Shown piece after piece: positions 5,696-42,422 of a stretch of 54,202 nt of DNA (position 1 is the stretch's first letter; each line of letters opens with the position of its first letter). The stretch is taken from NCBI GenBank assembly GCA_017395715.1, contig JAFQNZ010000211.1, positions 1 to 54,202 on the forward strand, given 5' to 3'. The translations under genes were made by a program, and so were the position numbers. This stretch comes from Clostridia bacterium. Lineage in GTDB: Bacteria; Bacillota; Clostridia; Oscillospirales; CAG-272. The notes under the pieces were generated by a model that saw only the letters and a list, made by a program, of their open reading frames with translations, had not been told where the DNA came from and did no database searches.

Positions 5696-6085
5696 ATGAA
5701 CTTTGCCGACAATTTGAAGCGAATCTGTACTGAACGAGGAACTTCCCCGACCGCCCTTTTGAAGTCGATGGGCGTAGCCACATCCAAAGTTGCGATGTGG
5801 AATAGCGGCTCTCTCCCCAAGCAGGAAATGCTCATCCGTCTCGCCAAGGAGCTTGATTGCTCTGTCATGGACTTCTTTGCTGATGACGCTGATCTCGCCG
5901 CACAGAATATCAATAAGACCAACGCTGATGCTGAACCCAAGAACGAGGATGAATCTGACATTCTCCGAATCTTCCGTTCTCTTTCAAGGAGAGCCAAGCA
6001 TGAGTTCATGTCTATGGCCTACGAATTTGAGACACGCGAAGAATTGACAGGGGATAACGCAAACGATCAATCGTCTGTTATCTAA
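5696..6085 (+). CDS. CI-like XRE-family HTH repressor
   Basis: N-terminal NFADNLKRICTERGTSPTALLKSMGVATSKVAMWNSG is an XRE-type HTH. The RBS is GAGAGGAG. Confidence 0.75.
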   Translation: MNFADNLKRICTERGTSPTALLKSMGVATSKVAMWNSGSLPKQEMLIRLAKELDCSVMDFFADDADLAAQNINKTNADAEPKNEDESDILRIFRSLSRRAKHEFMSMAYEFETREELTGDNANDQSSVI

Positions 6086-6172: not shown

Positions 6173-7723
6173 ATGACGAAAGCTGTGATCTATGCTCGTT
6201 ATTCGAGCCACAATCAGAGAGAAGAATCCATCGAAGGCCAGATTCGAGAGTGTCAAGACTTCGCCGCTCGAAATGATATGACCATCGTTGGTGAATATAT
6301 TGATCGTGCGATTTCGGGTAAAACCGACAATCGTGCTGAATTTCAGCGCATGATACGAGACTCGGAACGTGGACACTTCCAAGTCGTGCTTGTCTATGCC
6401 ATTGACCGCTTCGCTCGCAATCGCTACGATTCAGCTATCTACAAGGCCAAGCTGAAAAAGAACGGAGTCAAGGTCTTCTACGCAAAACAGTATATCCCTG
6501 ACACACCCGAAGGTATCATCCTCGAATCCGTCATGGAGGGCTATGCTGAATACTACTCTCAAAACCTCGCCATCCACATCAAACGAGGAATGAAGGAAAA
6601 CGCCCTTCAATGCAAGGTTACAGGGGGAACAACCCCTCTCGGCTACCGTATTGGAGAGAACAAGACCTATGAGATCGACCCCGCAGGTGCGAAGATCATC
6701 CAAGAGATATTCCAAATGTACGCTGATGGTTCATCGGCTACCCAGATCGTCAACTACTGTAATGAACAGGGCTACCGCACCGCTCGTGGTGGTAAGTTCA
6801 ATAAGAACAGCCTGAGAACGATACTCCTCAATGATAAGTACATCGGCATTTACCGCTACGAAGATATTGAGGTCGAAGACGGAATCCCTGCGATCATTAC
6901 CAAGGAGCTTTTCGAGAAGGTACAGGCCATGTTCCACCACAACCATGCGGCAAGGGCAAAGACCAAGGCCAACGCAGACTACCTCCTCACAACCAAACTG
7001 TTCTGCGGACATTGCGGCTCGAACATGGTTGGTGAGAGCGGTACTGCTCGTAATGGTGATACTTATTACTACTATAAGTGTTCTAATCGTAAGAAGAATC
7101 ATTCCTGCACCAAGAAGACTGAGAAAAAGGATTGGATTGAGGAGATCGTAGTTCGTCATACTGTCTCCACCGTCCTTACAGATGAGAGCATTGAACTCAT
7201 CGCTACCAAAGCAATCGAACTCATGGAGAAGGAGTTTGCCGAAAATTCGGTCTTGACCGCTTTAGAGCAATCCTTGAAGGATGTAGAGAAGCGAATCAAG
7301 AATCTCCTTGATCTCATGGAACAAGGTATCGTCACACCAAGCACGAGAGAACGTCTCCTCGAATTGGAATCTCAGAAAAGTGACCTTGACCAACGAATTG
7401 CCCGTGAGAGCATGAAAAAACCGCCCTTGTCGAAAGAGCGGATTATCCATTGGCTCATGACGTTCAGGGGCGGTAATGTAAAAGATGTAGAATATAGGCG
7501 TAGAGTGATCGACACTCTCGTCAATTCCATCTATGTTTTCGATTCAGAAGACGGCGATGGAAGGAAAATCGTCTTCACATTCAATGTTTCTGGCCAGAAC
7601 ACTTCTACTATCCATGTTTCGGATATTGCGTGTTTCGCTCCACCATACGGTGCAAATCCGAACCACTTCTTCTTTGTGAAGAACGTCTTCGGGTTTGTGA
7701 AAGAAATAGAGGTCACGGCATGA
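6173..7723 (+). CDS. int: Large serine recombinase (phage integrase)
   Basis: Resolvase-type N-terminus AVIYARYSSHNQ...IEGQ and YAIDRFARN, followed by a recombinase domain and a Cys-rich zinc-ribbon region (CGHCG...YYYKCSNRKKNHSC). 516 aa. Confidence 0.9.
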   Translation: MTKAVIYARYSSHNQREESIEGQIRECQDFAARNDMTIVGEYIDRAISGKTDNRAEFQRMIRDSERGHFQVVLVYAIDRFARNRYDSAIYKAKLKKNGVKVFYAKQYIPDTPEGIILESVMEGYAEYYSQNLAIHIKRGMKENALQCKVTGGTTPLGYRIGENKTYEIDPAGAKIIQEIFQMYADGSSATQIVNYCNEQGYRTARGGKFNKNSLRTILLNDKYIGIYRYEDIEVEDGIPAIITKELFEKVQAMFHHNHAARAKTKANADYLLTTKLFCGHCGSNMVGESGTARNGDTYYYYKCSNRKKNHSCTKKTEKKDWIEEIVVRHTVSTVLTDESIELIATKAIELMEKEFAENSVLTALEQSLKDVEKRIKNLLDLMEQGIVTPSTRERLLELESQKSDLDQRIARESMKKPPLSKERIIHWLMTFRGGNVKDVEYRRRVIDTLVNSIYVFDSEDGDGRKIVFTFNVSGQNTSTIHVSDIACFAPPYGANPNHFFFVKNVFGFVKEIEVTA

Positions 7724-10618: not shown

Positions 10619-11721
10619 GGTTCTTTCCTTCCTTTCAGATCATAAAAGTAGTGTTCCATGCGTTGCCGTTGGTAGAAGGTGTCACCTCGCTTTGCATTCG
10701 CTCGCCAAGCGATGAAGCTATTGCGTGTTGTTCCTTCTGCGAGCAAACCCGCACGTTCTTTTGCCATGAGTTTCTTCATCTTGCGTCTCTGTTTGCCGAG
10801 CTTCTTACCGTTCATGTACCGCAGGATTCTTCCTGTATCGGCGGCAATGACGAACCGCCAATTCATCATGCGGACACCCTGCTTCAAGGGGTAGAGGGTC
10901 GTTTTCTTATTGAGTTCCAAACCCAACGCTTGAACCTTCTCCTCAATCCGCTTACGGCACTCCTGCAAATAAGACTTGTCAGGATGTATCAGCACAAAAT
11001 CATCCATGTAGCGCAGGTAGTGCTTGATTCTCAGCCGTTCCTTGATGTAATGGTCGAGATCGTCAAGCACCGCCAATTCCACCAACTGACTGATCTGACT
11101 TCCGAGTCCGATACCTGTATCGCCCTCGAAGGAATCAATCACATTGCAAACTGCCTGTGCCGCTCTATCATCCGAAATACGCTTACGAACCGCATTCTTT
11201 GCGACTTCGTGCGAGGTTGAAGGGAAAAACTTCCGAATGTCGCATTTGAGTACCCAACCTTCCGTACCATGCTCCAAGTAATACCTGCGCAGGTGAGCGG
11301 TCATGCGGTCGAGGGTGAAGTCTGTACCCTTTCCCGTCTGACACGCGCCGTTGTCATGTATCAAATGCTCCACCATGTCATTGTATAGACCTGCCATACA
11401 CAGAGCCTTTTGAAACTGACGGTCTCTCAGGCGGGTCGCTACGATCTCCCTTTTCTTCGGTTCATAGACTGTGAAGTGCTGATAGGGACTGATTCTGTAT
11501 TTGCCTTTGAGCAAGTCCTGCCGTAAGTGATAGGTGTTCTTTAGGCCGTTGGCTTCATACCCAACCACACTATCCTTCCACCGCACGTTGCGGCAGGACT
11601 TCTTCAAGGCTTTGTACAGATTTCCGAACTCTATGGCTTTATCAAAATATTGGTCATTCATAAAGGGGTCATGGGTGCTCGGTAGCAAGGCCACCCCGCA
11701 AGGTGCTTGCGTCACCCACAT
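10615..11721 (-). CDS. DGR reverse transcriptase
   Basis: RYMDDFVLI (YxDD box) and IGLGSQISQ ([I/L]GxxxSQ, DGR-RT hallmark). ATG at 11721 is preceded by GAAAGGAGCG. Confidence 0.9.
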   Translation of the reverse strand: MWVTQAPCGVALLPSTHDPFMNDQYFDKAIEFGNLYKALKKSCRNVRWKDSVVGYEANGLKNTYHLRQDLLKGKYRISPYQHFTVYEPKKREIVATRLRDRQFQKALCMAGLYNDMVEHLIHDNGACQTGKGTDFTLDRMTAHLRRYYLEHGTEGWVLKCDIRKFFPSTSHEVAKNAVRKRISDDRAAQAVCNVIDSFEGDTGIGLGSQISQLVELAVLDDLDHYIKERLRIKHYLRYMDDFVLIHPDKSYLQECRKRIEEKVQALGLELNKKTTLYPLKQGVRMMNWRFVIAADTGRILRYMNGKKLGKQRRKMKKLMAKERAGLLAEGTTRNSFIAWRANAKRGDTFYQRQRMEHYFYDLKGRKEP

Positions 11722-27703: not shown

Positions 27704-29152
27704 TTACTCCTCTGTCTCAACCTTCTTAGGCGGTTCTCCCTTGGAAGGAGGTACAGAACCCGCCGGGACAGGTTCTTTGTAATCCCACTTCCGCAGGAAG
27801 GACTTGCTCTGCTCGGTCACATCCATCGGGTCATTGAACAGACCACTCGTGGCAATAGCCACTTCGGGGGCAAGACCAGCTTCAAGCATCTGCATCAAGC
27901 TCTGCGTCTTGGTCAACAGGTTATCATGCTGTCTGCGAGTGAACTTGTAATCCACCTCGCGCAGACTCAGGTTGAACTCCTTCACCACGGTACGGATGAT
28001 GCTCAGGGCAAGCCGCAGGAAACTCCGTTCAGACTCCTCGAAAAGAAGCTCGGTGTCCTTGGCTCGCGCTTCGCATTGACTCCAACCGTCTCTCAGGAAT
28101 ACCGCCGCACCCGTATCAGAGGTGGATGCACCACCCTTGGTCGTGGTCGGCATACCACAGATCACAAGCACCTGCTCGTAGATGTAATCCACAAGGGTCT
28201 GCGTCTGCGCCTGATTAAGCTCCTGAGACACAATATCCACATCGGAATCCACGCCCTGCGTAGACTTCACGATGATCGCACCGAGTTCTTGGAGCTTTTT
28301 GATACCCGCATCGTCAATCTCACAGTTCTTGAACTTCAAGAAGCTCTGAATGAACTGCTCAATACCATCCACTCGGTTGCTCATGATGGTGTTGATCGCA
28401 TCCAACAGCGGAACGGCGGGTTCAAAAGAACCCATCCTTGCCATATTCAGCCGATACTCGAAAATCGGAATATCGCCCAAACTGTGCGCTTCCCACTTTT
28501 TCAGCACACCATCTTCGACCTCGAAGTAATGGTCACGAGTGTAGCCGCAATAGGTAGCTTTCAGGCTCTTATCGGCCTGTTCTTTGTAGACCTCACGAAC
28601 ACCCATCATCCTGCGCTTACCGAAACCTGCGTTGTACACCACGAAGGTGTAGCGCGGGTCAGGGGTATCAAGCATGAAGGGAGCGTCATCCTCGGTCGCG
28701 TTCTTACGGGGGAGAACCATGCGATAGCCAACACCGCCAATCGCCATCCATGTAGCGATTTCCTTGTCACGGCTCGCCTTGTTCTCGAAGAACATGAAGT
28801 CATTCAGCGTGGTAATCTCGTTGGAAGACTGTCCACGCTCACCGCGCCGCACATAGGTCAGCGGTTCACCGAGGAAATATCCGCTCGTGAACTGCGTAAT
28901 CTCAGCGGCATGGTTTTCAACGATCTTGTTGCAAATCTCAGGCCGCACCTTTTTCGTGCGGGTGAGAATCGGCTGATTGCCCTTCATGTAGCGATAGAGG
29001 TAGTCAATCTGAAAGGAGTTGGTCTGATGAACGAGCAACGCCTTACCCAGCACATCGCACACATTATTGCGTGTGATTTCTTCAACGGGGGTGATGATCT
29101 CCGTCCTGCCAAAAAGCGGATTCTCGATCTGAACCCCTACGTTCTCACTCAT
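27704..29152 (-). CDS. Portal protein (SPP1 gp6-like)
   Basis: 482 aa from the ATG at 29152, preceded by GGGAGGGAG. Lies two genes downstream of terL, with nrdG between. Confidence 0.85.
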   Translation of the reverse strand: MSENVGVQIENPLFGRTEIITPVEEITRNNVCDVLGKALLVHQTNSFQIDYLYRYMKGNQPILTRTKKVRPEICNKIVENHAAEITQFTSGYFLGEPLTYVRRGERGQSSNEITTLNDFMFFENKASRDKEIATWMAIGGVGYRMVLPRKNATEDDAPFMLDTPDPRYTFVVYNAGFGKRRMMGVREVYKEQADKSLKATYCGYTRDHYFEVEDGVLKKWEAHSLGDIPIFEYRLNMARMGSFEPAVPLLDAINTIMSNRVDGIEQFIQSFLKFKNCEIDDAGIKKLQELGAIIVKSTQGVDSDVDIVSQELNQAQTQTLVDYIYEQVLVICGMPTTTKGGASTSDTGAAVFLRDGWSQCEARAKDTELLFEESERSFLRLALSIIRTVVKEFNLSLREVDYKFTRRQHDNLLTKTQSLMQMLEAGLAPEVAIATSGLFNDPMDVTEQSKSFLRKWDYKEPVPAGSVPPSKGEPPKKVETEE

Positions 29153-29171
29153 CTGAACTCCCTCCCTTCTC

Positions 29172-29223
29172 GAAAATAAAAAGCGCATGATGTTCGAGGA
29201 CGTGTCCTCTCGCATTCATGCGC
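29172..29223 (-). terminator. Intrinsic terminator in the portal leader
   Basis: Outer stem gcgcatga / tcatgcgc encloses an inner hairpin. On the minus strand it is followed by TTTTTATTTT. Confidence 0.6.
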
Positions 29224-29255
29224 CTTGAATCCATATTGCGGATTTCTACTATTCA

Positions 29256-29284
29256 ATTATACTCTATATTTCGGAGCTTGTCAA
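29256..29284 (-). promoter_or_regulatory. Consensus sigma70-type promoter upstream of the portal gene
   Basis: Minus strand reads TTGACA (29284-29279), 17 bp, TATAAT (29261-29256). Confidence 0.65.
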
Positions 29285-29309
29285 TAAAAATTCTTCTGAT
29301 TATTGGATT

Positions 29310-29804
29310 TTATTTGTAAAGGAGCGTGATTTCTCCTGTCTCACGGTAAGCGTTCATATCAATCACACGCTGATTCGTACTCCCTCGATAATCAAGTTCG
29401 AGCGACCGCAGTTCTTGAACATACCGACCATCCACAAGCACATCCACTTCTCGTAGTAATACATCAGCGTTCGGAACGTGCTTTTCCAACTGTTGCAGAG
29501 TATACCCTGTATAACACCATACGTTCATACCTCTCGCTTTTGCGGCTTTGGCTATTTCCGCACAAGCAAATTGCTGAAAGAACGGTTCGCCGCCCGAAAG
29601 GGTCAGGCCATCGCAAAGCGGGTTTGCATCCATCTGAGCTATGACCTCCTCAACCTCCATCATCTTTCCACCATAGAGCGTATGAGTTTCGGGGTTATGA
29701 CACCCTTTACAACGGTGTGGGCAACCCTGCGTGAATACTACGAACCGAAGCCCCTTACCGTCCACAATAGAATCCTGCGTGATACCCGCTACTCTGATCT
29801 TCAT
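29310..29804 (-). CDS. nrdG: Anaerobic ribonucleotide reductase activating protein (radical SAM)
   Basis: MKIRVAGITQDSIVDGKGLRFVVFTQGCPHRCKGCHNPETH contains CxxxCxxC, and GLTLSGGEP is present. ATG at 29804 follows GAGGAGG. Confidence 0.85.
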   Translation of the reverse strand: MKIRVAGITQDSIVDGKGLRFVVFTQGCPHRCKGCHNPETHTLYGGKMMEVEEVIAQMDANPLCDGLTLSGGEPFFQQFACAEIAKAAKARGMNVWCYTGYTLQQLEKHVPNADVLLREVDVLVDGRYVQELRSLELDYRGSTNQRVIDMNAYRETGEITLLYK

Positions 29805-29814
29805 GACAACCTCC

Positions 29815-31461
29815 TCAATACGGTCTCTGAATGATTCGTACCTCAGCCCCCGCAAGCCCCTGAATGAACTCGGCGAACATCGCCATGGCATCAGGTACGT
29901 CATCGTGCTTATTCTTACCCGCCATGGTGTAGGTGCAAAGCATATCCATGAACCTGCCGTAATCACTCGATCTCTTATACAGGCTCTTGTCCCTGAACAG
30001 GCAATGTTCCTTCACCCATGCGCTGTTGACGATGATCTTGGTCTCCTTATTGGCGGTGGTGAACTTGGTGGTGATGTGGGTGATACCACCCTGCTTCTTG
30101 ACTTCCTTCTGAACCTTCTCGGCAACACGACCACCTGCGCTGTTGCTCTCAAAACGGCATTGATGCACCTTGTTTTTCAGCAGAATCCCAATGAGACGAG
30201 CGTCCACCGTATCAGGCAAACCGTTGTCACAGATCACATCTTCGATATAGTAGTCATTACCATAGCAGTAGCCAACGGGAAGCACAGCGAAGTCCGTACC
30301 CTTATCCTTGGTATCGCAGACAGCCAAAATGCCGTCAGGAGCGGTGCTCGGCAGATCGAAATATCTGCGAAGCTCGTCTTCATCGTATACAAGACCCTCG
30401 CGCTCAATGGGTTCGTTCATATACAAGGCTCGCCAGCTGGCATCATCCATAATATCACGCTGTTCATGGTAGACCTTGGTGGAGAAACCCACGCCGTAAG
30501 CGTAATCGAAATTGCTCTCATCATTCGCATCCAAAGCGGGAATGACAATGAATTTCGCCCTCGGATTGTTGCTATACTCACTTTCAAGCCGTCCGATAAC
30601 GTCATGGACGCTCCAACGGGTAGCAATGTGAAGCTCCTTGCACTTATCACCGATCTTACGCTGACGAAGGTCGGTGGTGTAGGTCTGCCACAGCTTGTCC
30701 AAGCGTTCCTTACTCAGAGCAACCTCGATACCACTCACAAGGTCATCGCAGTAAAGCAGGGTAGCCGCACGGTACAAACCCGCATTACCCGTACCGATGG
30801 AGGTAAATTCAAGGGTCTCGAATCGTTTGGGGTCTCCCAGATCAATGCGGCAATCCTTCGCATTGGTACTGCATACATCCACATACGGGAAAACATCATG
30901 CCACAGGTATTCACCGTTCTTATCGAAGATGCGCAGACATTCGTCATATACACCGCGAACGAAGGAATTACTATGGCTACCCGTCAGCATAGGTTTATCG
31001 GGAATCTTACCCGCGAGCCACGTCAGGAAGAAAATCGCCAATGTAGTCTTGCCTACGCCCGGAGGAAGACTGATCGCCAAAAGGTCGAGCGCATCATCCG
31101 CAAGAGCTTGAAGCTCATCAACCACCGCTTTCAGAATCTTACGGCGGGGAGCATAGAATTTCTTACTCGGTTCCCTGTTCCATTCGATATATAATAGGTA
31201 AGAATCGAAATCGTCCTTTGCGGCGGCATGGAGCACCTGCTTGTGAAGGGAGAAGAAATTCCTCGCAAGAGGTAAATCTGTCTTCGCAAGAGAGGGAATG
31301 AGATCATTCAACCTCTCGGAAATCCATTTCAGCCATTTGAGACCCAGTTCCTTATCAGTTTTCAGAGCTTCCTTCGCAACTGAATACAAATCCTTATAAA
31401 TTCGGTAATTGAGAGGGTCTTTTTGCAGATTTTCCGCAATTTTCTCAATCAAATCAAGCAT
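29815..31461 (-). CDS. terL: Terminase large subunit
   Basis: Walker A LPPGVGKTT plus a C-terminal nuclease-type region. ATG at 31461 is preceded by GGAGG. Confidence 0.85.
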   Translation of the reverse strand: MLDLIEKIAENLQKDPLNYRIYKDLYSVAKEALKTDKELGLKWLKWISERLNDLIPSLAKTDLPLARNFFSLHKQVLHAAAKDDFDSYLLYIEWNREPSKKFYAPRRKILKAVVDELQALADDALDLLAISLPPGVGKTTLAIFFLTWLAGKIPDKPMLTGSHSNSFVRGVYDECLRIFDKNGEYLWHDVFPYVDVCSTNAKDCRIDLGDPKRFETLEFTSIGTGNAGLYRAATLLYCDDLVSGIEVALSKERLDKLWQTYTTDLRQRKIGDKCKELHIATRWSVHDVIGRLESEYSNNPRAKFIVIPALDANDESNFDYAYGVGFSTKVYHEQRDIMDDASWRALYMNEPIEREGLVYDEDELRRYFDLPSTAPDGILAVCDTKDKGTDFAVLPVGYCYGNDYYIEDVICDNGLPDTVDARLIGILLKNKVHQCRFESNSAGGRVAEKVQKEVKKQGGITHITTKFTTANKETKIIVNSAWVKEHCLFRDKSLYKRSSDYGRFMDMLCTYTMAGKNKHDDVPDAMAMFAEFIQGLAGAEVRIIQRPY

Positions 31462-31470
31462 TTTCGACCT

Positions 31471-31514
31471 CCAAAACAAAAATAGTGCATGATCGCGTCT
31501 TTGCAATCATGCAC
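31471..31514 (-). terminator. Intrinsic terminator immediately upstream of the terL RBS
   Basis: 9-bp stem gtgcatgat / atcatgcac. On the minus strand it is followed by TATTTTTGTTTT. Confidence 0.6.
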
Positions 31515-31519
31515 CATCT

Positions 31520-31870
31520 TCAAACTTCGAGTTTCTTCATGTACTCCTTGTATTCCAAGGTTTGATTTCCTACCTTGACGTGCTTTCGTGAGCCGTCAGC
31601 ATAGTATACCATAAAGATTGTCTCATTCACAGCCCTATTTCGTAATCCTACGCTCATATGGACTGTATCTATGATCTTGGTCTTCACAACTGTTCGAGCA
31701 AGAGCGGCTTTTTCTCGTTCAGCTTGCCATTCTTGACGTTGCTCGAAGGTTTTCTGTCTTCTCTGCTCATATTTACCTGACTTCTTCTCATGTCGGTCGT
31801 ATAAAATGATGACCGCGAAGATAATCACGGCGAATATCACAGCAAATATGAAAAACATCTTCCCGTCCAT
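31520..31870 (-). CDS. Membrane-anchored hypothetical protein
   Basis: N-terminal TM segment MFFIFAVIFAVIIFAVIILY followed by a charged region. Confidence 0.6.
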   Translation of the reverse strand: MDGKMFFIFAVIFAVIIFAVIILYDRHEKKSGKYEQRRQKTFEQRQEWQAEREKAALARTVVKTKIIDTVHMSVGLRNRAVNETIFMVYYADGSRKHVKVGNQTLEYKEYMKKLEV

Positions 31871-31871
31871 A

Positions 31872-32516
31872 TTACCCTGCCTTTCTCACTCGTTCATACC
31901 AAGTGCTTCGGCTGATACCCAACTCCTCACAACACTCCGAGACGGTCATTTGACCGTCTTTTTGCATTTTCAGGAATTTTTCAAACTCAGGAATCTCCTT
32001 GGCCTTACGACCTTCCTTCCAATCGGGATCATGTTCACGGCAGATTGCCTTACCCTCGCTCGTGCGAGCAACAATCATATCGCGCTCGAACTCCGCAAAG
32101 GCGAGGAAGATTGTCCGCATCAGCTTCCCAGAAGGGCTGTCATCGAATTTTCCCATGTTCAGGATGTTGATTTCAACGCCCTTCGCCAAAAACTCATCAA
32201 TAATGTCAAGGCCATCGCGGGTGCTTCGAGCCATACGGTCGAGCTTTGTCATCACCACCGTGTCTCCTGCACACACCAACCCCATGAGTTCGTCCAGCTG
32301 AGGGCGGCTTTTCTTCGTGCCTGTGAAACTCTCACACAGAATCTTCTCTGCACCTGCTTCTCGCAGGAGCTTTTCTTGGGCTTCAAGGCTGTTTCCGTAC
32401 CTGTCCTGCCCTTTGGTGCTGACTCGTGCATAGCCGTAGATCAACCCAACCACACCTCCTTTGGGAAATTCGGGAGGATTTTTCATCCTCAGCTTCTTCA
32501 TGAAGAAGACAGTCAA
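31872..32516 (-). CDS. Small serine recombinase (resolvase/invertase family)
   Basis: GYARVSTKGQD (catalytic Ser), VVMTKLDRMARS, and a C-terminal HTH (VSECCEELGISRSTWYERV). The start is uncertain: TTG at 32516 or ATG at 32486. Confidence 0.8.
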   Translation of the reverse strand: MTVFFMKKLRMKNPPEFPKGGVVGLIYGYARVSTKGQDRYGNSLEAQEKLLREAGAEKILCESFTGTKKSRPQLDELMGLVCAGDTVVMTKLDRMARSTRDGLDIIDEFLAKGVEINILNMGKFDDSPSGKLMRTIFLAFAEFERDMIVARTSEGKAICREHDPDWKEGRKAKEIPEFEKFLKMQKDGQMTVSECCEELGISRSTWYERVRKAG

Positions 32517-32562
32517 AATACTTCCTTACACAATACCGTTCAGAAATATTCCCATTCTTCCC

Positions 32563-32787
32563 TTATTCTACTTCAAACCCACCTTCGGGGACTCGCGTCT
32601 CTCTCGGAACGACCACAACCTTGTAATCCATCAGCCGAAGCATTTCATTCAGCTTGGAGACAGACACGTTCTTCTGCTTGAATCGTTCACTCAGGACGTT
32701 GCTCTTGATACCAAGACGGTCACACAGCATCGCGGGACGAACCTCTTTCAGCTTCATAACCTCTTTTACAGCTTCCATGGCAATCAT
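32563..32787 (-). CDS. Small HTH DNA-binding protein
   Basis: ATG at 32787 (ATGA overlap, AGGAAGG RBS). MLCDRLGIKSNVLSERFKQKNVSVSKLNEML is HTH-like. Confidence 0.5.
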   Translation of the reverse strand: MIAMEAVKEVMKLKEVRPAMLCDRLGIKSNVLSERFKQKNVSVSKLNEMLRLMDYKVVVVPRETRVPEGGFEVE

Positions 32788-33035
32788 TGCTGACACCTTC
32801 CTTCATTGTACTCCTTGATGGCCTTGGTGAGTGCATTGACCACAAAGGTCTTATCGAGCAAGTAGAGATCGGAGATACCTTCTTCTCGTGCTACATCAAC
32901 CACCGCCTGAACGATAGCATCATCCACCATATCAACACATTGAGCAAGAACCTTCTGCTGAACGGAATACACACCATCGTCTACATTGATCTTGGGAGTT
33001 ACCTCAAACTGATAGTGCTCAAATGGATAAGCCAT
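32784..33035 (-). CDS. Hypothetical protein
   Basis: ATG at 33035 is preceded by AAAGGAGGTG and lies downstream of the leftward promoter at 33059-33087. Confidence 0.55.
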   Translation of the reverse strand: MAYPFEHYQFEVTPKINVDDGVYSVQQKVLAQCVDMVDDAIVQAVVDVAREEGISDLYLLDKTFVVNALTKAIKEYNEGRCQQ

Positions 33036-33058
33036 AAGAACACCTCCTTTCGTGAAAG

Positions 33059-33087
33059 AGTATAGCACAGGTATTTCTGAGTGTCAA
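33059..33087 (-). promoter_or_regulatory. Leftward promoter of the island
   Basis: Minus strand reads TTGACA (33087-33082), 17 bp, TATACT (33064-33059). It is flanked by TCTGAG repeats at 33076-33081 and 33094-33099. Confidence 0.55.
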
Positions 33088-33263
33088 GATATATCTGAGC
33101 AAAATGACTTTTTAATTTTTCCGGGTACTCAGAGCACTCCCTGCGGCGGGTGGCGGGTGGCGTATTCCCCCAGGGGTACACCCTGCCCACGTTGGCGGGA
33201 TATGATCGCATTCAGGCCGCGCCCATGTGCGAAAACTGTTGATTTTCCGCACGTCTCGAAGAC

Positions 33264-33350
33264 CTCAGAAAAATCTGAGAAAATTTCTTGTAAACGCTTG
33301 ACAAGCTCAGATATATCTGATATACTCGTGTCGTACTCAGAAATAACTGA
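33264..33350 (+). promoter_or_regulatory. Rightward promoter-operator cassette
   Basis: Palindrome CTCAGAAAAATCTGAG at 33264-33279. TTGACA (33298-33303), 17 bp, TATACT (33321-33326). TCAGATATATCTGA lies in the spacer, and CTCAGAAATAACTGA at 33336-33350. Confidence 0.6.
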
Positions 33351-33376
33351 CCGACCGAACGAGAGGAGACACCGCC

Positions 33377-34459
33377 ATGAAGACCATCGAAACCATCCGC
33401 GCCATGATCGCCGAGAGCCGCGAAACCTACCGCGACACCGCCAACGCCACCCGCGAAGCCGTGAAGACCCTCGAAAGCATCTACCGCGAAACCATCGAAA
33501 AGACTCCCGCCGAGACCATCGCCGCATACGTTGCCGCCGTTGGTCATGATATGGCGGTGTGTGTCCTCGCTTCCCTCGTAAACCGTAGCGCGTGGGACGG
33601 GCGCATTTCTCGCCGTTGTGCTGAGTGGGCAAAGGCTCAGGAAAACGCATGGGATGAGGAAGCCGCCGAAAAGCTCTGGATTGGCTCTGACCGCATCCAC
33701 CGCGCCCACCTCGATCAACTCGCCGCCGCTATGATGGAATATCAGCCCGAAGAACCCGAAGAAGAAACCACCGAAGAACCGAAGGAGGAAACGCCCATGT
33801 TCCCGAACCTGACCGCCGCCGTCAATGCTCACTTTGATGAGAACGCCGCGAAATTCGCCGCCAACCTCGAAACCATTACCACAGGCGAAGCTCTCGCGGG
33901 TTGGTACTACCGTAACCGCATGACTCCCGCCGCGCTCCGTATGGCGCAGGAAATTGACCCCGCCGAACCTCTCCCCGCAAAGGTACGGGAAAAGATGGTT
34001 TCCCGCTTTCAGCGTGAGAACGAGAGCGACCGCCAGAAATACCTGCACAAGCTCGAAAGAGCCGCCAACGCTCCCGAACTCCGAGACCTGACCGTCTGCG
34101 TGGAATGGGCAAAAAGCCGCACCTGGGGCGCAAATCCCACCGCCACCGTTACCGCGAACGACTCGCACCACTACGAAACCACCGGCCACGCCAGCGGATG
34201 CGGCTATGATAAAGAAAGCGCCGCCATCGCCAGCGCCATGAACGCGAACGCCGCCGTTCTCCGCATCCTGTACACCCACGCCGAAAAGGGCGGGGAATTC
34301 GCTTATTCGGTGTACACGTTCGCAGGTCTGCCGTACTTTGACGGCGGGTGCGGTGTTTCCTGCTTCCGGAACGTCTTCGAGGGATGCGGCTATGAATGGC
34401 GCGACCTCGTGCACCGGAAAACCTTCGATTCCTACATGATGACCCCCGCGAACGCCTGA
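33377..34459 (+). CDS. Hypothetical protein (360 aa, GC-rich)
   Basis: RBS is GAGAGGAG. The C-terminal region carries GHASGCGYDKESAAIA and DGGCGVSCF motifs. I recognise no family. Confidence 0.7.
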   Translation: MKTIETIRAMIAESRETYRDTANATREAVKTLESIYRETIEKTPAETIAAYVAAVGHDMAVCVLASLVNRSAWDGRISRRCAEWAKAQENAWDEEAAEKLWIGSDRIHRAHLDQLAAAMMEYQPEEPEEETTEEPKEETPMFPNLTAAVNAHFDENAAKFAANLETITTGEALAGWYYRNRMTPAALRMAQEIDPAEPLPAKVREKMVSRFQRENESDRQKYLHKLERAANAPELRDLTVCVEWAKSRTWGANPTATVTANDSHHYETTGHASGCGYDKESAAIASAMNANAAVLRILYTHAEKGGEFAYSVYTFAGLPYFDGGCGVSCFRNVFEGCGYEWRDLVHRKTFDSYMMTPANA

Positions 34460-34473
34460 AAGGAGATCGACCC

Positions 34474-34725
34474 ATGAAAACCACTCTTTCCAAGCAATAC
34501 GAGAGCCGCCGCCCGTTGGTGGTTCTCCCTCTCTCCAATTTCGGAGGGCTTGCCATTCTCGACATACTCAGCGAGTGCGGCGATTCGATCATAATAGCCG
34601 CTTGGGATTTCGGCAGGGGCTACGAAAACACCCGCCGCTACACCGTCAAAGAAACCACCTCCGGCCGCTCTTTCATCCGAAAGGGAAACCGCCGTTTCTA
34701 CCTCGACCAAATGCAGAGAATTTGA
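34474..34725 (+). CDS. Hypothetical protein (83 aa)
   Basis: ATG at 34474 is preceded by gaaaggagatcgaccc. Confidence 0.6.
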   Translation: MKTTLSKQYESRRPLVVLPLSNFGGLAILDILSECGDSIIIAAWDFGRGYENTRRYTVKETTSGRSFIRKGNRRFYLDQMQRI

Positions 34726-34739
34726 AAGGAGATCGAACC

Positions 34740-35003
34740 ATGAACGAATTGACCACCCTTTGTAGAGAATACCGCGAACTCCAGCGCATGGGCGAAGAAA
34801 TCGCCGCCGAAATGGACGCTTTGAAAGATCGCATTCGCGCCGCCATGGGCGAAAATGACACCGTGACGGCGGGAGAATACAAGATCACAAACAAGGCCGT
34901 TTCAAGCTCCCGCCTTGACTCCGTAGCTCTGAAAAAGGCTCTGCCTGAGATCGCCGCACAATTTACGAAAACCACCGTTTCCCGGCGTTTCGTGATTTCG
35001 TGA
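34740..35003 (+). CDS. Hypothetical protein (87 aa)
   Basis: ATG at 34740 is preceded by the near-identical gaaaggagatcgaacc. Confidence 0.6.
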   Translation: MNELTTLCREYRELQRMGEEIAAEMDALKDRIRAAMGENDTVTAGEYKITNKAVSSSRLDSVALKKALPEIAAQFTKTTVSRRFVIS

Positions 35004-35016
35004 GGAGGTGCGCACC

Positions 35017-35301
35017 GTGTCGAAAATCTGTTACCAGCTTGTCACCGACCCCCGCGAGCATACCGCCGAATTTACCGACACCCGCCGAAAAATTCCCCTC
35101 GTCAAAGTGTGGGGAGATCGCCCCGAAGACCTCGCCACCGTATACCGCGCCGCCGCTTCCCATTTTCTCGAACTCGCCCACCTGAGCGAACACGCCGCCG
35201 AATTTGCCCCGCCTGAATACAGCGAGAGCGAACGCCGCGCCCAGTTCGACCGCCTGACCGAAGAAAACCCCGTTTCGATCTTCGAGGGGGTGAGCCTGTG
35301 A
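35017..35301 (+). CDS. Hypothetical protein (94 aa)
   Basis: GTG at 35017 lies 8 nt after GAGGAGG. Confidence 0.5.
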   Translation: MSKICYQLVTDPREHTAEFTDTRRKIPLVKVWGDRPEDLATVYRAAASHFLELAHLSEHAAEFAPPEYSESERRAQFDRLTEENPVSIFEGVSL

Positions 35302-35369
35302 CCGTTCTTCTCTGCGTGATCGTTCTTCCTCTCGTCATTCTCGCCGAACTGCTGAAAATCACCCATTGA
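35298..35369 (+). CDS. Possible 23-aa hydrophobic peptide
   Basis: GTGA overlap with the previous stop. Translation is VTVLLCVIVLPLVILAELLKITH. It is directly followed by terminators. Confidence 0.25.
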   Translation: MTVLLCVIVLPLVILAELLKITH

Positions 35370-35375
35370 CACCAA

Positions 35376-35404
35376 CCCCGCCCACCGTGGCGGGGCTTTT
35401 CTTT
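35376..35404 (+). terminator. Intrinsic terminator 1 of the plus-strand cluster
   Basis: Stem ccccgcc / ggcgggg followed by cttttcttt. Confidence 0.75.
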
Positions 35405-35440
35405 GCCCGTTCCCGCTCGCCGTGGGAATGGGCTTTTTCT
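35405..35440 (+). terminator. Intrinsic terminator 2 (tandem)
   Basis: Stem gcccgttccc / gggaatgggc (one G.U pair) followed by tttttct. Confidence 0.65.
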
Positions 35441-35930
35441 GCGCTGATGGAGGGGCTTCCGGGGCGTTCCCGCTCGGCCTGTGACCAAATACCCGCCGCC
35501 ACTCTCAGAGCCGCCCCAGATCGCCACCGGGAGCGCGAAAAGACGCACCTACGACACCCGCCACGGCTCCCTGAATCTCTCCCGAAATGCGGCCTTTCAT
35601 TTTAAGGCATCTGGCGGCCTTTCTGGGGCGTTTCTCTGTATACCCTTATAAAGGTATCGACCGACACCGCCGGGACGCTCTGGGACGGCTCCGGGCGCGT
35701 CTGTGAATGCGTGGCGGCTCTACATTTCAGAGCGGCGAAAACCTGCATTCCGGGCGCATTTGAGCACCCACCTCGAAAGCCGCCCATTTTTCAGGTCATT
35801 TTCTGCCGATTTTCCGATCATTTCCCGAAAGTATTACGGAAATATTAAGAGACCCGCTCCCTGTGCATTTCTGCGCCAGAGTGCGGGTCTGCGTGTCATA
35901 GTCGGAGAGTCGTAGTCGCTCGAAAGTCGT

Positions 35931-36512
35931 TTAAGAGTCGATAGTCGTAGAGTCGGTAAGATACCGCTTCCGCAGATCATCCTCGTTAAAGTCGCTCTCG
36001 TTCTGCGTGTTGGGGGTGAGCACCATTTCCTGCTTATCCTGATAGCCGAAGTTGTTCTTACCAAGGAAGATACCCGAAACAGGGTTGATTTTTCCGCTGT
36101 TCATGTAACTTTCCCACATATTTTCCATCAAAGAGTACGCCTTTTTTATGGAGTCCTTTACCTCGCTGGGCAAGTCCTCTATCCATCTGTTCGAGGTCTG
36201 CGCACCAACCTTGATTTCCCACAGTCTTCTCCTGTCCAAGCCAAGAGCCATGCCCATACCTGCCACGGTAGGTTTCATATCGTTCTCAGCATACAGCATG
36301 AAGAACTCGGTGAGTCGTTCAGCCACAGCTTCGGGGTCATGAAGATCGACCTTCGACATATTAAACAGTTTGATGTTCACACCAAGGATTTTCGCGTTAT
36401 CCCCTTCCTGCAACATCAGGCCGTTGTCTCCGATCATAGGAGAGTTGCCACCACGGGGCTTGCCCTTCGTCTTCACGACCTGCTCGCCCATATCCTGAAT
36501 TTCCTTGCTCAT
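35931..36512 (-). CDS. terS: Terminase small subunit (putative)
   Basis: 193 aa. The segment AERLTEFFMLYAENDMKPTVAGMGMALGLDRRRLWE is an HTH typical of small terminases. RBS is GAAAGGAGCG. Confidence 0.55.
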   Translation of the reverse strand: MSKEIQDMGEQVVKTKGKPRGGNSPMIGDNGLMLQEGDNAKILGVNIKLFNMSKVDLHDPEAVAERLTEFFMLYAENDMKPTVAGMGMALGLDRRRLWEIKVGAQTSNRWIEDLPSEVKDSIKKAYSLMENMWESYMNSGKINPVSGIFLGKNNFGYQDKQEMVLTPNTQNESDFNEDDLRKRYLTDSTTIDS

Positions 36513-36530
36513 TTGCGCTCCTTTCCGCTT

Positions 36531-36738
36531 AGGGAAGAAAGGGAATATTTTTTACGCAGAGCTTTTATATAGCGTATATAGCTTTATATATTCTCTTACA
36601 CGTTATCTTCTTAAAATATTCCCTAATTTCCCTATCTATAAAATCTCTTACACGATACCTTTTTAAAAGTTCCCATTCTTCCCTGAGAGTCGAAAGTCCT
36701 TATGCGTTAGATGAACGAAAAAGTTCCCTTTCTTCCCA
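36531..36738. repeat. Phased, iteron-like repeats upstream of terS
   Basis: A 21-bp element AAAA(T/G)(A)TTCCC(T/A)(T/A)T(T/C)TTCCC occurs at 36613-36633, 36665-36684 and 36718-36738, and inverted at 36531-36553. Larger units of about 42 bp lie at 36592-36633 and 36644-36684 (period 52 bp). Confidence 0.75.
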
Positions 36739-36740
36739 AG

Positions 36741-36962
36741 TTATAAATTGACGCATGACAACCACTCTGCAAAATCTTCGAGTGTTTGCTTATCAGGAGT
36801 CAACCAACTTGCACTCGCCCTGTCATCTGAGAACTCATAATACAGCCTTTCGACCGTACCTGCGTGTACATTGAGCTTACCATGTTCATTGAGATACCTC
36901 ATGATCTTCTCCATATCCGCAGGATGATCGAGCGTATAGTCGTATTTTTCATAGACTTTCAT
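36741..36962 (-). CDS. Hypothetical protein (73 aa)
   Basis: ATG at 36962 is preceded by GGAGGG. ATGA overlap with the upstream small ORF. Confidence 0.55.
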   Translation of the reverse strand: MKVYEKYDYTLDHPADMEKIMRYLNEHGKLNVHAGTVERLYYEFSDDRASASWLTPDKQTLEDFAEWLSCVNL

Positions 36963-37138
36963 GACTTTTTCCCTCCAAATAAGGCGATGATATAGCTGTC
37001 CGCAAGCTCCATCGCTTGCTTCGGTGTGAAGCCCTCTTTCAAGCCGCATTCGTAGAACCAACGGCACATACGCACGGTGACGTGAATGCTATCGAATACA
37101 GCCTGAGCTTCGGGATTCAATTTAGGCTGTTCAGGCAT
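36959..37138 (-). CDS. Hypothetical protein (59 aa, below the ORF-track cutoff)
   Basis: ATG at 37138 is preceded by AAGGAGGTG. Translation begins MPEQPKLNPEAQAVFDSIHVTVRMCRWFYECGLKEGF... Confidence 0.55.
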   Translation of the reverse strand: MPEQPKLNPEAQAVFDSIHVTVRMCRWFYECGLKEGFTPKQAMELADSYIIALFGGKKS

Positions 37139-37150
37139 AAGTACACCTCC

Positions 37151-37513
37151 TTAGTTATCACCATACACGGCAATGACTTTACGCCAATACGGTTCATACT
37201 TGGCTACCTCAGCTTTCACCATGGCATCGAACTCGCTGTCAGAAAGTTCGGAGGTCTCCTTGTTATTCAGAGCATCGCTCACGGCTTCCTCGAACTCATC
37301 CTTATCGGTGAAAACCGTCTCTCCATCGTAAGGCGTGTGAGTATCAAGAATGAAGTCGATTGTACAATGCACCGAGGAGCAGTACATCCAACCATATTCA
37401 CCGCCGGGGTTTGCTTCGTCACCCGCCAAGACCACGATAGGCAGGTCGGGATTTTCCGCAATGAGCTTGCGAAGCTCCGATGCGTCATGAATCAATCCAA
37501 GATTATCAGTCAT
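37151..37513 (-). CDS. Hypothetical protein (120 aa)
   Basis: ATG at 37513 is preceded by AGGAGG. Confidence 0.6.
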   Translation of the reverse strand: MTDNLGLIHDASELRKLIAENPDLPIVVLAGDEANPGGEYGWMYCSSVHCTIDFILDTHTPYDGETVFTDKDEFEEAVSDALNNKETSELSDSEFDAMVKAEVAKYEPYWRKVIAVYGDN

Positions 37514-42144: not shown

Positions 42145-42232
42145 CTCAGATATTCCTGAGTTCTCTTAAAGAATATCAGAAATATCTGAGCTTGTCAAGC
42201 CTTTCGGGAAACTTTTCTCAGAAAAATCTGAG
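42145..42232 (-). promoter_or_regulatory. Promoter-operator cassette B (an inverted copy of 33264-33350)
   Basis: Minus strand reads TTGACA (42198-42193), 17 bp, TATTCT (42175-42170). Palindromes: CTCAGAAAAATCTGAG at 42217-42232, tcagaaatatctgag at 42176-42190, ctcagatattcctgag at 42145-42160. Confidence 0.6.
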
Positions 42233-42233
42233 A

Positions 42234-42422
42234 TTACCAATCAACGCCCATGTCATCAAGGCAGGTGAGAATCACGTTCCAATGGGGTGCGTTGCCCGGA
42301 CGGGTAGCACCACCCGCTTTCATGATCTCGGAGCGGTTGATGTTGCATCCCTTGCTTCTCATCCTGTGCCACAGGTCATCCATGGTGTACCCGTTAGCCC
42401 TCAGAGCAGTTCTCAGGTTCAT
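42234..42422 (-). CDS. Small putative DNA-binding protein (62 aa)
   Basis: ATG at 42422 is preceded by AAGGAGGTG. Confidence 0.5.
   Translation of the reverse strand: MNLRTALRANGYTMDDLWHRMRSKGCNINRSEIMKAGGATRPGNAPHWNVILTCLDDMGVDW

Follow-up and report, generated by a model that had tools for sequence, protein, structure and literature searches.

What occupies the interval between the two terminase genes of a phage found in the Clostridia bacterium assembly GCA_017395715.1, and how did it come to lie there? On contig JAFQNZ010000211.1 (positions 1 to 54,202 of the forward strand; this whole stretch of 54,202 nt is hereafter called the window), the genes for the small (terS) and large (terL) terminase subunits stand on either side of a 4.4-kb block (31520-35930), which a first-pass annotation had described as a resolvase-carrying island of foreign composition inserted between two normally adjacent genes. 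Comparison with relatives reveals that the block represents, in this phage, a variable accessory locus that the whole family maintains between terS and terL. Our confidence in the anatomy and evolution of the locus is high; for the statement as a whole, which joins the accessory locus and its module exchange to a repressor circuit and an early-expressed cargo, it is moderate. Variable accessory loci, morons and anti-defence loci regulated by helix-turn-helix (HTH) proteins are already known, and a limited literature search found no description of such a terS-terL arrangement, nor of several of its features: the permanent terS/terL split, a second serine recombinase in residence, a repressor-operator pair undergoing diversification, two cargo families that are conserved and lack a known fold, and a conserved 85-nt element.

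The terS-terL interval and its residents

The identities first assigned to the flanking genes are supported by profile matches, to GP3_package (6e-8) and phrog_606 for terS (35931-36512, minus strand), which is of the P22-gp3-like type, and to phrog_38 (2e-66) for terL (29815-31461, minus strand). Their supposed adjacency is not, in this lineage. A terL-seeded scan of IMG/VR yielded 246 relatives, of which the best 80 were kept, and in all 56 that carry both genes terS and terL lie 3133-5922 nt apart (median 4.4 kb); the nearest annotated cultured relative, Clostridium phage Maintenon (terL 47% identical), likewise has a gap of 2.65 kb. Because all 56 relatives with both genes show a separation of 3.1-5.9 kb, the gap is ancestral. 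The search for relatives lacking the block, proposed as a means of defining its ends, accordingly found none with adjacent terS and terL among the 56, and no target duplication. For annotation purposes, a split terS/terL pair is the rule in this group of gut Clostridia phages rather than the mark of an insertion or an assembly error.

The gap has regular residents. Clustering of the open reading frames (ORFs) in the 56 gaps placed a serine recombinase in at least 41, always in the orientation of terL, and a family of small proteins represented in the window by one of 87 amino acids (aa) in 28; small HTH proteins also recur, as do membrane proteins or lipoproteins just upstream of terL, the position held in the window by a 116-aa gene. 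In a second scan, seeded on the family of a 360-aa protein of the block (orf360) alone, 80 loci were assessed. The orf360-family gene lies between terS and terL in 33 (21 co-directional, 12 antisense) and adjoins one of the two in 25 further loci, while a single locus has both terminase genes present and the family member elsewhere. The family is found with the same synteny in genome records of Acutalibacteraceae, Ruminococcus, Lachnospiraceae, Criibacterium and other Clostridia. The recurrent residents of the gap in hundreds of Clostridia phages are the orf360 family, the 87-aa family (the most widespread orf360 partner there), a small HTH protein and a serine recombinase, usually in the order terS, orf360 family, 87-aa family, (HTH), serine recombinase, (variable gene), terL. 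The window is a variant of this layout in which the orf360 and 87-aa families stand antisense under a promoter of their own. A megablast search of 29000-37500 against GenBank phages returned no match. As a separate observation, an orf360 homologue (83% nt identity) in three loci (L085, L086 and L087) heads a long co-directional run of small genes beside a tyrosine integrase, with terS and terL not nearby.

In the window, the block consists of two arms flanking a 210-bp control region. The leftward arm lies on the strand of the structural genes and opens with an ORF for a protein of 83-94 aa (32784-33068, minus strand; 83 aa in the L202 and L208 gene calls), which has no match in family searches of Pfam, PHROGs and PADLOC. 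There follow, all on the minus strand, a gene for an Xre/HipB-like HTH protein of 74-77 aa (32563-32796; 74 aa from the ATG at 32787), a gene for a small serine recombinase of the resolvase/invertase type (31872-32516) and, adjoining terL, the variable gene, here an ORF for a 116-aa single-pass membrane protein (31520-31870). Direct reading of the latter shows one N-terminal hydrophobic helix, FFIFAVIFAVIIFAVIILY, and a Pfam search gave no match. Between the membrane-protein gene and the ribosome-binding site of terL stands a terminator-like hairpin (31479-31520, minus strand) with a 19-bp stem (dG -27.3 kcal/mol, z -6.1) and a U-rich run after it; a simple terminator scan did not pick it up, and it was recovered by folding.

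The rightward arm, antisense to the packaging genes, carries four plus-strand genes: orf360 (33377-34459), an 83-aa gene (orf83, 34474-34725), the 87-aa gene (34740-35003) and, last in the operon, a 94-aa ORF (35017-35301), which appears in the gene calls of relatives and has no family match in Pfam, PHROGs or PADLOC. Two tandem intrinsic terminators (35376-35440, plus strand) close the operon. Their stems, at 35376-35395 (7 bp, 7 GC) and 35405-35433 (12 bp, 8 GC), are each followed by a T run and are the two best terminator-like sites of the region. Some 490 nt of non-coding DNA (35441-35930) then abut the terS stop codon. The first-pass annotation had named the recombinase with its C-terminal HTH, the small HTH protein, the membrane protein, four or five plus-strand ORFs and both sets of terminators; each of these held up, the plus-strand ORFs as four genes and the HTH protein at profile level only. 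No tRNA or tmRNA gene was found in the window.

Replacement of modules in both arms

The four closest relatives (L001, L002, L003 and L008) share terL at 98% protein identity, and this identity breaks at 31518. The 116-aa gene is absent from L001, in which the recombinase gene is 97.8% identical at the nucleotide level and the cargo is entirely different. In these relatives the HTH gene is 74% identical and located on the other side of the recombinase, and the plus-strand cargo is wholly replaced by unrelated genes of low guanine-cytosine (GC) content, with the control region (33107-33324, 81%) and 35567-36513 (87%) retained. The reverse combination is found in L083, a prophage on a 227-kb contig in which the block remains inside the prophage: 33378-35940 is 94.5% identical to the window, versus 69% for terL and 73% for terS (nucleotide identities), and the cargo stands beside a different recombinase, of 248 aa. 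These comparisons identify the cargo operon and the non-coding stretch as a recently exchanged module of which the recombinase forms no part; the enzyme remains with the backbone when the cargo is replaced, and so does not carry it. The homology breakpoints, at 31518 against L001 (left, at the hairpin) and at 35940 against L083 (right, at an array of CGACT pentamers described below), coincide with both block ends as originally drawn. There are no direct or inverted repeats at the borders 31520 and 35930, no target duplication there, and no transposase among the block proteins by Pfam and PHROGs.

Replacement on a finer scale is seen within a single phage species. The 87-aa protein at 99% identity or above is indexed in more than 100 collection blocks (110 for the P0127 variant alone), and comparison of 10 distinct same-species contexts, for which 24 contigs were read, revealed at least five gene-content variants of both arms. 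In some, orf360 has a different N-terminus (345 aa) or is replaced by genes of 76, 235 and 78 aa; others have an additional 107-aa gene, two recombinase arrangements occur, and the lipoproteins differ. The 83-aa gene is present or absent among the variants, and exactly orf83 is missing in L203 and L210. All 10 contexts are divergent in orientation, the operon always closes with the 87-aa and 94-aa genes, and the exact arrangement of the window was found again in four independent samples.

In the window, orf83 is flanked by near-identical junctions, TGAAAGGAGATCGA(C/A)CCATGAA, at 34455-34476 and 34721-34742, and its presence or absence is the outcome that recombination between such conserved linkers would produce. 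An integron-like cassette array was ruled out: the inter-gene spacers, of 13-14 nt, hold only the ribosome-binding linker and leave no room for attC-like sites. These comparisons show both arms being replaced module by module. Ordinary homologous recombination most probably accounts for this, with exchange at short stretches of conserved sequence in the control region, in the inter-gene linkers of 20 nt and in the repeat array where terS ends.

Morons and accessory-gene hot spots of tailed phages have reportedly been described by Hendrix and colleagues. The locus resembles morons in forming a self-contained unit with promoter and terminator, antisense within the late region, of atypical composition and with a content that varies among close relatives. 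It differs from them in that the flanking genes are adjacent in no relative (0 of 56), in being a permanent locus with conserved residents (the recombinase, the HTH protein, the orf360 and 87-aa families and a DNA element), and in having repressor operators in common with an early promoter.

Regulation and possible role of the cargo

The divergent promoters proposed at first reading (33087-33059, minus strand, and 33298-33326, plus strand) both have the form TTGACA-17-TATACT, agree with the sigma-70-type consensus at 11 of 12 positions and carry the TG extension. A palindrome, CTCAGA-N4-TCTGAG, accompanies them; it occurs five times in the window against 0.31 expected, and nine times in a relaxed form against 0.04 expected. 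All copies are confined to two places. In the divergent control region they stand upstream of, within the spacer of and downstream of the plus-strand promoter (33264-33279, 33306-33321 and 33336-33349, in a feature spanning 33264-33349) and at the minus-strand promoter (33068-33081 and 33087-33100, in a feature spanning 33059-33100). The second place is 42145-42232 (minus strand), where three copies surround a twin promoter (42170-42198) that shares 27 of 29 bases with the promoter at 33298-33326 and precedes the replication module, whose genes, a D5_N primase gene among them, were identified through annotated relatives. A conserved 62-aa gene (about 42234-42422) ends beside this site.

Relatives that share this promoter layout differ in operator according to their allele of the small HTH protein, five operators going with five alleles: CTCAGA-N4-TCTGAG with the window type, GTGAGA-N4-TCTCAC with that of L001 (72% identical over 74 aa), TACGGA-N4-TCCGTA with that of L119 (45% identical), ATCAATAAAACACTTGAT with that of L203 (43% identical) and ACACG-N4-CGTGT with that of L205 and L118. 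A profile of the family matches HipB (4e-5) as well as further HTH proteins of the Xre/Cro type, and HTH_37/HTH_3 are found in family members; for the protein at 32563-32796 the HTH assignment holds at profile level only. With each of five alleles matched to a palindromic operator of its own in one common layout, there is good evidence that the small HTH protein would be the repressor of the locus, and we consider the HTH-operator circuit likely. As the co-variation suggests, the protein would bind the palindromic operators around the strong sigma-70-type promoters and repress both arms. At least five matched repressor-operator pairs would constitute a ready-made set of orthogonal regulators, and the locus as a whole provides a defined study system, with a fixed position, swappable cargo and what is apparently a simple repressor-operator switch. 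Because a near-identical promoter-operator precedes the replication genes, the cargo operon is probably part of the early lytic programme and not of a lysogenic-conversion set.

The same elements bear on the alternative that the cargo is a lysogenic-conversion or superinfection-exclusion set, expressed from the prophage for the benefit of the host. Consensus host-type promoters and terminators that form a self-contained unit, placed antisense within the late region, would suit such a set, as would the membrane proteins and lipoproteins that recur beside terL. Both promoters carry repressor operators, however, and the same promoter-operator drives replication genes that should be silent in a lysogen; moreover, a reading by eye of the four plus-strand proteins, with no predictor applied, noted no signal peptides or membrane segments. 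We regard this explanation as unlikely for the cargo. For the membrane protein the two accounts are not mutually exclusive, and the membrane proteins and lipoproteins beside terL may serve the exclusion of other phages.

The cargo proteins themselves resemble little that has been characterized. The N-terminal domain of orf360 is DUF3849-like (2.9e-5, just below the Pfam cut-off), a domain type typical of proteins of conjugative elements; the literature search found no paper that mentions it. The C-terminal domain, of about 215 aa, is conserved and often occurs as a stand-alone protein of 215-230 aa. The protein has 574 homologues; the motifs WGxNP, ASGCGYDK and G..G.G are invariant in the family, with W250, G251, N253, P254, A272-K279 (ASGCGYDK), G324 and G326 among the invariant residues, and C325 and C329 are at least 90% conserved; longer homologues contained no informative fused domains. 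An AlphaFold (AF2) model has a predicted local distance difference test (pLDDT) score of 92.4, and neither a sequence-profile search nor Foldseek found a match in the PDB (best E-value 0.12); uncharacterised phage proteins were its only matches in BFVD. The protein thus offers a confidently modelled domain with invariant Cys, Asp and Lys motifs and no relative of solved structure. The 87-aa protein matches phrog_1956 (9.5e-11) and the C-terminal part of phrog_434. Its AF2 model (pLDDT 79.6) and its sequence have no PDB match, and its Pfam matches are all sub-threshold (Gp157, 0.0024-0.008; PF22709, 0.008, in 2 of 27 members), so membership of the Mu Gam / Sipho_Gp157 family is not supported. 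The profile and structure searches suggested for establishing the identity of the cargo therefore yielded no PDB match for orf360 or the 87-aa protein and no family match for the 94-aa protein. The eight block proteins match no defence model in PADLOC, a resource that covers defence proteins and not anti-defence proteins.

The closest functional parallel is with anti-defence loci of the Aca type, such as the acr-aca1 locus of phage JBD30 inside the head-gene region. Both combine variable small genes, fixed in place among structural or packaging genes, with a strong promoter that palindromic operators overlap and with a small HTH protein encoded alongside. Here, in contrast, none of the cargo proteins matches an anti-defence protein already known, the HTH gene belongs to the divergent arm instead of closing the cargo operon, two of the cargo families are conserved widely, and the locus includes a serine recombinase. 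It is because of this resemblance, together with the DUF3849-like domain and its association with conjugative elements, that we put forward, tentatively, a role of the cargo in host takeover or counter-defence; the locus could then serve as a starting point for finding such functions in phages of hard-to-culture anaerobes.

Several observations weigh against early expression under a single repressor and against a counter-defence role. L118 carries CTCAGA-type operators at the replication-region site (11257-11329) and ACACG-type operators with the HTH gene in its terS-terL locus (2783-3122), a mismatch that argues against a single regulator for both sites, and the HTH protein may not bind distal sites of the 42145-42232 type. 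Many relatives carry the orf360 and 87-aa genes in co-directional arrangement with no sign of a divergent promoter, a layout as compatible with a late or packaging-linked role as with an early one. Searches of Pfam, PHROGs and PADLOC linked none of the cargo proteins to an anti-defence, defence or otherwise characterised family, and the predicted structures of orf360 and the 87-aa protein match no solved fold. Lastly, the orf360 and 87-aa families keep their position across very distant phages, which is unusual for counter-defence genes of fast turnover, and a packaging-linked or virion-linked role would fit this positional conservation and the co-direction equally well.

Conserved DNA elements, the recombinase and further explanations

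Between the divergent promoters lies a conserved core element of about 85 nt (33107-33195), in which a T-rich run is followed by GGGRTAYTY and (C/T)ACTCCCT and then, beyond a variable, GC-rich spacer (about 24 nt), by a CCCCC-GGGGG palindrome. Of 211 loci, 72 carry it, in a single copy each; it invariably lies just upstream of the HTH/recombinase/terL unit and keeps one orientation relative to terL, co-directional loci included. The element is kept while the flanking promoters and operators change, and is conserved across loci whose recombinases have different DNA-binding domains. It has no Rfam match and no second copy in the window. A sigma-54 promoter, considered by eye, was rejected on account of wrong spacing and a GG that is not conserved. 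An RNA was rejected as well, since RNAalifold found no consensus structure, with 11 pairs for 12 sequences and none for 49. This once-per-genome element looks like a protein-binding DNA site.

At the other end of the module, seven CGACT pentamers fall within 56 nt (35900-35955, minus strand) spanning the terS stop, out of 24 on that strand in the whole window (P ~4e-13); L083 has three tandem AGCGACTATGACTC units at this position. The pentamers lie where the exchanged module has its right breakpoint, and could be a protein-binding array, perhaps a packaging-recognition site. The adjacent non-coding stretch (35441-35930) is conserved with L083 (94%) and with L001 and L008 (87%), and this similarity crosses reading frames, in agreement with the original reading that it holds no convincing ORF. 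A pseudogene was rejected on the same ground, the 166-aa ORF of L001 being of low complexity and its similarity to the window crossing frames. A structured RNA was also rejected (fold z -1.5 and -1.7, and a weak four-sequence consensus) except for one conserved hairpin at 35850-35890 (minus strand) with one compensatory change. Rfam searches found nothing at the gathering threshold in the window and seven relatives, and at an E-value threshold gave chance-level matches on terminators only (33000-36100). In every relative inspected (L083, L088, L092, L118, L119 and L128), as in the window (35302-35930), 0.5-0.8 kb without called genes follow terS in any orientation of the cargo, an unusually long stretch for a phage intergenic region.

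A third motif lies upstream of two minus-strand genes. Exact GGGAA-N4-GGGAA occurs only five times in the window, all at 32525-32562 and 36532-36737, and the composite GGGAA-N4-GGGAA...GTGTAAG three times against none expected. The first site, a composite motif (minus strand), precedes the recombinase gene, and the second, an array of three direct copies and one inverted copy (minus strand), precedes terS. The array is conserved in L001 and L083, and the motif also precedes the L001 recombinase gene despite a different gene order there. As a guess, GGGAA/GTGTAAG might mark a promoter of late type, or an activator site, at which transcription towards terL starts anew.

These elements invite a genome-end explanation modelled on P1 Cre-lox, where a recombinase and its site near the packaging start, in the terminal redundancy, help to circularise the genome or to resolve it; the recombination or packaging site would then be the 85-nt element or the CGACT array. 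The parallel is with a second site-specific recombinase, besides the integrase, near the packaging genes, here in a phage with a P22-gp3-like terS, and the differences are that the enzyme is a serine and not a tyrosine recombinase and that no recombination site was identified here. A serine recombinase fixed between terS and terL in most relatives despite a separate integrase, one palindrome-bearing element per genome in fixed orientation upstream of the recombinase/terL unit, and the highly non-random CGACT array at the terS stop codon all speak for this explanation. In IMG/VR loci L122-L201, moreover, contig ends fall within about 500 nt of orf360-family genes more often than expected (8 upstream and 7 downstream, against about 2 expected each). 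Their enrichment on both sides of the gene would equally result from assembly breaks at a variable locus, and they were rejected as proof of physical termini. The constancy of the 85-nt element across recombinases with different DNA-binding domains is also at odds with the explanation, as a recombination site would be expected to vary with its enzyme; there is no second copy of the element in the window to pair with, and nothing ties the cargo proteins to such a role. We consider a Cre-lox-like function decidedly unlikely. A bolder form, in which the whole interval is a genome-end module, the 85-nt element and/or the CGACT array marks the packaging start or circularisation, and the repressor-controlled operon is the first DNA to enter the cell and to be transcribed there, seems distinctly improbable; were it true, the operon would be the phage counterpart of the anti-defence leading region of conjugative plasmids.

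The accessory-locus reading leaves the recombinase itself to be accounted for. It matches Pfam Resolvase (2e-35, residues 26-157) and phrog_125 (7e-47), shows by direct reading the catalytic motif YGYARVSTKGQD with its nucleophilic serine, and aligns full length to γδ and Tn3 resolvase; the match to γδ resolvase (1zr2, 3e-21) covers residues 9-194 against γδ residues 3-180 of 183, C-terminal HTH included. Weak HTH_7, HTH_8 and HTH_5 matches fall at residues 176-212, and the true start probably lies downstream of the TTG at 32516. The phage also encodes a large serine integrase of 516 aa (6173-7723, plus strand) with Resolvase, Recombinase and Zn-ribbon domains, adjoined by a CI-like HTH gene (129 aa, 5696-6085, plus strand). 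This separate integrase shows the small enzyme to be a second serine recombinase of the phage and not its integrase; many integrase-bearing phages thus keep a second, small serine recombinase beside the terminase genes. No convincing candidates for paired recombination sites were found at the locus. An inverted repeat of 19/20 positions (32544-32563 and 36531-36550) was rejected as an inversion site, since it is one copy of the multi-copy GGGAA motif and its inversion would turn terS antisense, which no relative shows.

Alignment with the Tn3/γδ resolvases and the presence of a conserved non-coding element in a divergent intergenic region recall the resolvase-res systems. The locus departs from them in having no transposase or terminal repeats, and in that the 85-nt element lies away from the recombinase gene, lacks the three-subsite layout and is common to different recombinase subfamilies. 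With Gin, Cin and Hin (of Mu, P1 and Salmonella) it has in common a small serine recombinase beside a segment found both ways across relatives; it differs in the absence of flanking inverted repeats, in the single orientation within the species and in the lack of tail-fibre or flagellin alternatives.

This likeness underlies the proposal that the enzyme is a DNA invertase, and the cargo a switch that turns between the late operon and its own promoter. The best PHROG match of the recombinase is indeed annotated 'DNA invertase', the orf360/87-aa segment occurs in both orientations across the family, and in two loci, L009 and L010, the segment lies in opposite orientations between flanks that are collinear. 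Against an active switch, no significant inverted repeats flank the cargo, either in the window (the best alignment of 33090-33300 with 35301-35935 scores 25, with a shuffled maximum of 27) or at the L009/L010 junctions, the inverted parts of these two loci are 81-84% identical and differ in content, which makes theirs an old event, and all 10 same-species contexts in the 24 contigs read share one orientation, the two orientations being seen only when distant relatives are compared. Inversion by the recombinase is on this evidence highly improbable. The L009/L010 junctions were also rejected as recombination sites, having no paired sites, with 130-bp palindromes outside the inverted segment. 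These palindromic elements, of about 130 bp, occur twice each in L009 (5365-5502 and 8497-8619) and L010 (2052-2156 and 5248-5353), one upstream of terS and one upstream of the HTH/recombinase unit, bracketing terS and the cargo.

The composition on which the island proposal had drawn is anomalous in part of the block. The right 2.55 kb (33377-35930) has a GC content of 0.584 and ranks first of 1033 same-size windows (mean 0.515, standard deviation 0.021; 3.3 standard deviations above the mean), and orf360 has a GC content at third codon positions (GC3) of 0.717 against 0.629 +/- 0.053 for 21 backbone genes, as expected from the C/G-ending codons first noted on the plus strand. The left half (31520-33376), with a GC content of 0.474, is under the genome mean; the anomaly is thus confined to the right 2.55 kb and does not extend to the whole 4.4 kb, and of the foreign composition claimed, an atypical one is borne out for that part alone. 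GC content at first and second codon positions (GC1 and GC2) is raised as well in the cassette (GC2 0.479), which has a GC content of 0.57-0.59 in every backbone holding it against 0.48-0.51 for the backbones, and gap GC lies below backbone GC in nearly all relatives, the window being the exception. Because the cassette is GC-rich in all backbones sampled and its GC1 and GC2 are raised, its GC-richness is partly a property of its proteins and their amino-acid content; it points to no known donor, and a donor-backbone signature was rejected. The first-pass annotation had held uniform composition, together with the same genes conserved between terS and terL across the phage family, to speak against an acquired block: the gap does hold conserved families, and its composition is not uniform.

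A foreign mobile island, transposon-like cassette or satellite, brought between formerly adjacent terS and terL genes by its own resolvase, is scarcely credible, for although the block has its own promoters and terminators, includes the most GC-rich stretch of the window and holds cargo that has been transferred horizontally, none of the 56 relatives has the two genes adjacent, the resolvase stays with the backbone as the cargo changes and the cargo is found beside a different recombinase, no transposase, integrase, replication or capsid genes and no flanking repeats are present, and the promoters use the phage's own operator design. What survives of the acquired mobile or moron cassette first proposed is a self-contained, horizontally transferred operon of atypical composition, in an ancestral gap, with a recombinase outside the moving unit and no transposase; the suggestion of a satellite-like hitchhiker fails, as 31520-35930 holds no integrase, replication or capsid-redirecting genes and no att sites.

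Elsewhere in the packaging region, a gene for a radical-SAM / 4Fe-4S protein (29310-29966, minus strand; Fer4_12, 2e-38) lies between terL and the portal gene, its listed ORF overlapping the end of terL. We take its product to be NrdG-like. In the closest relatives the gene is 99% identical; most others lack it or carry a divergent form. The position looks like a second accessory slot in the packaging region.

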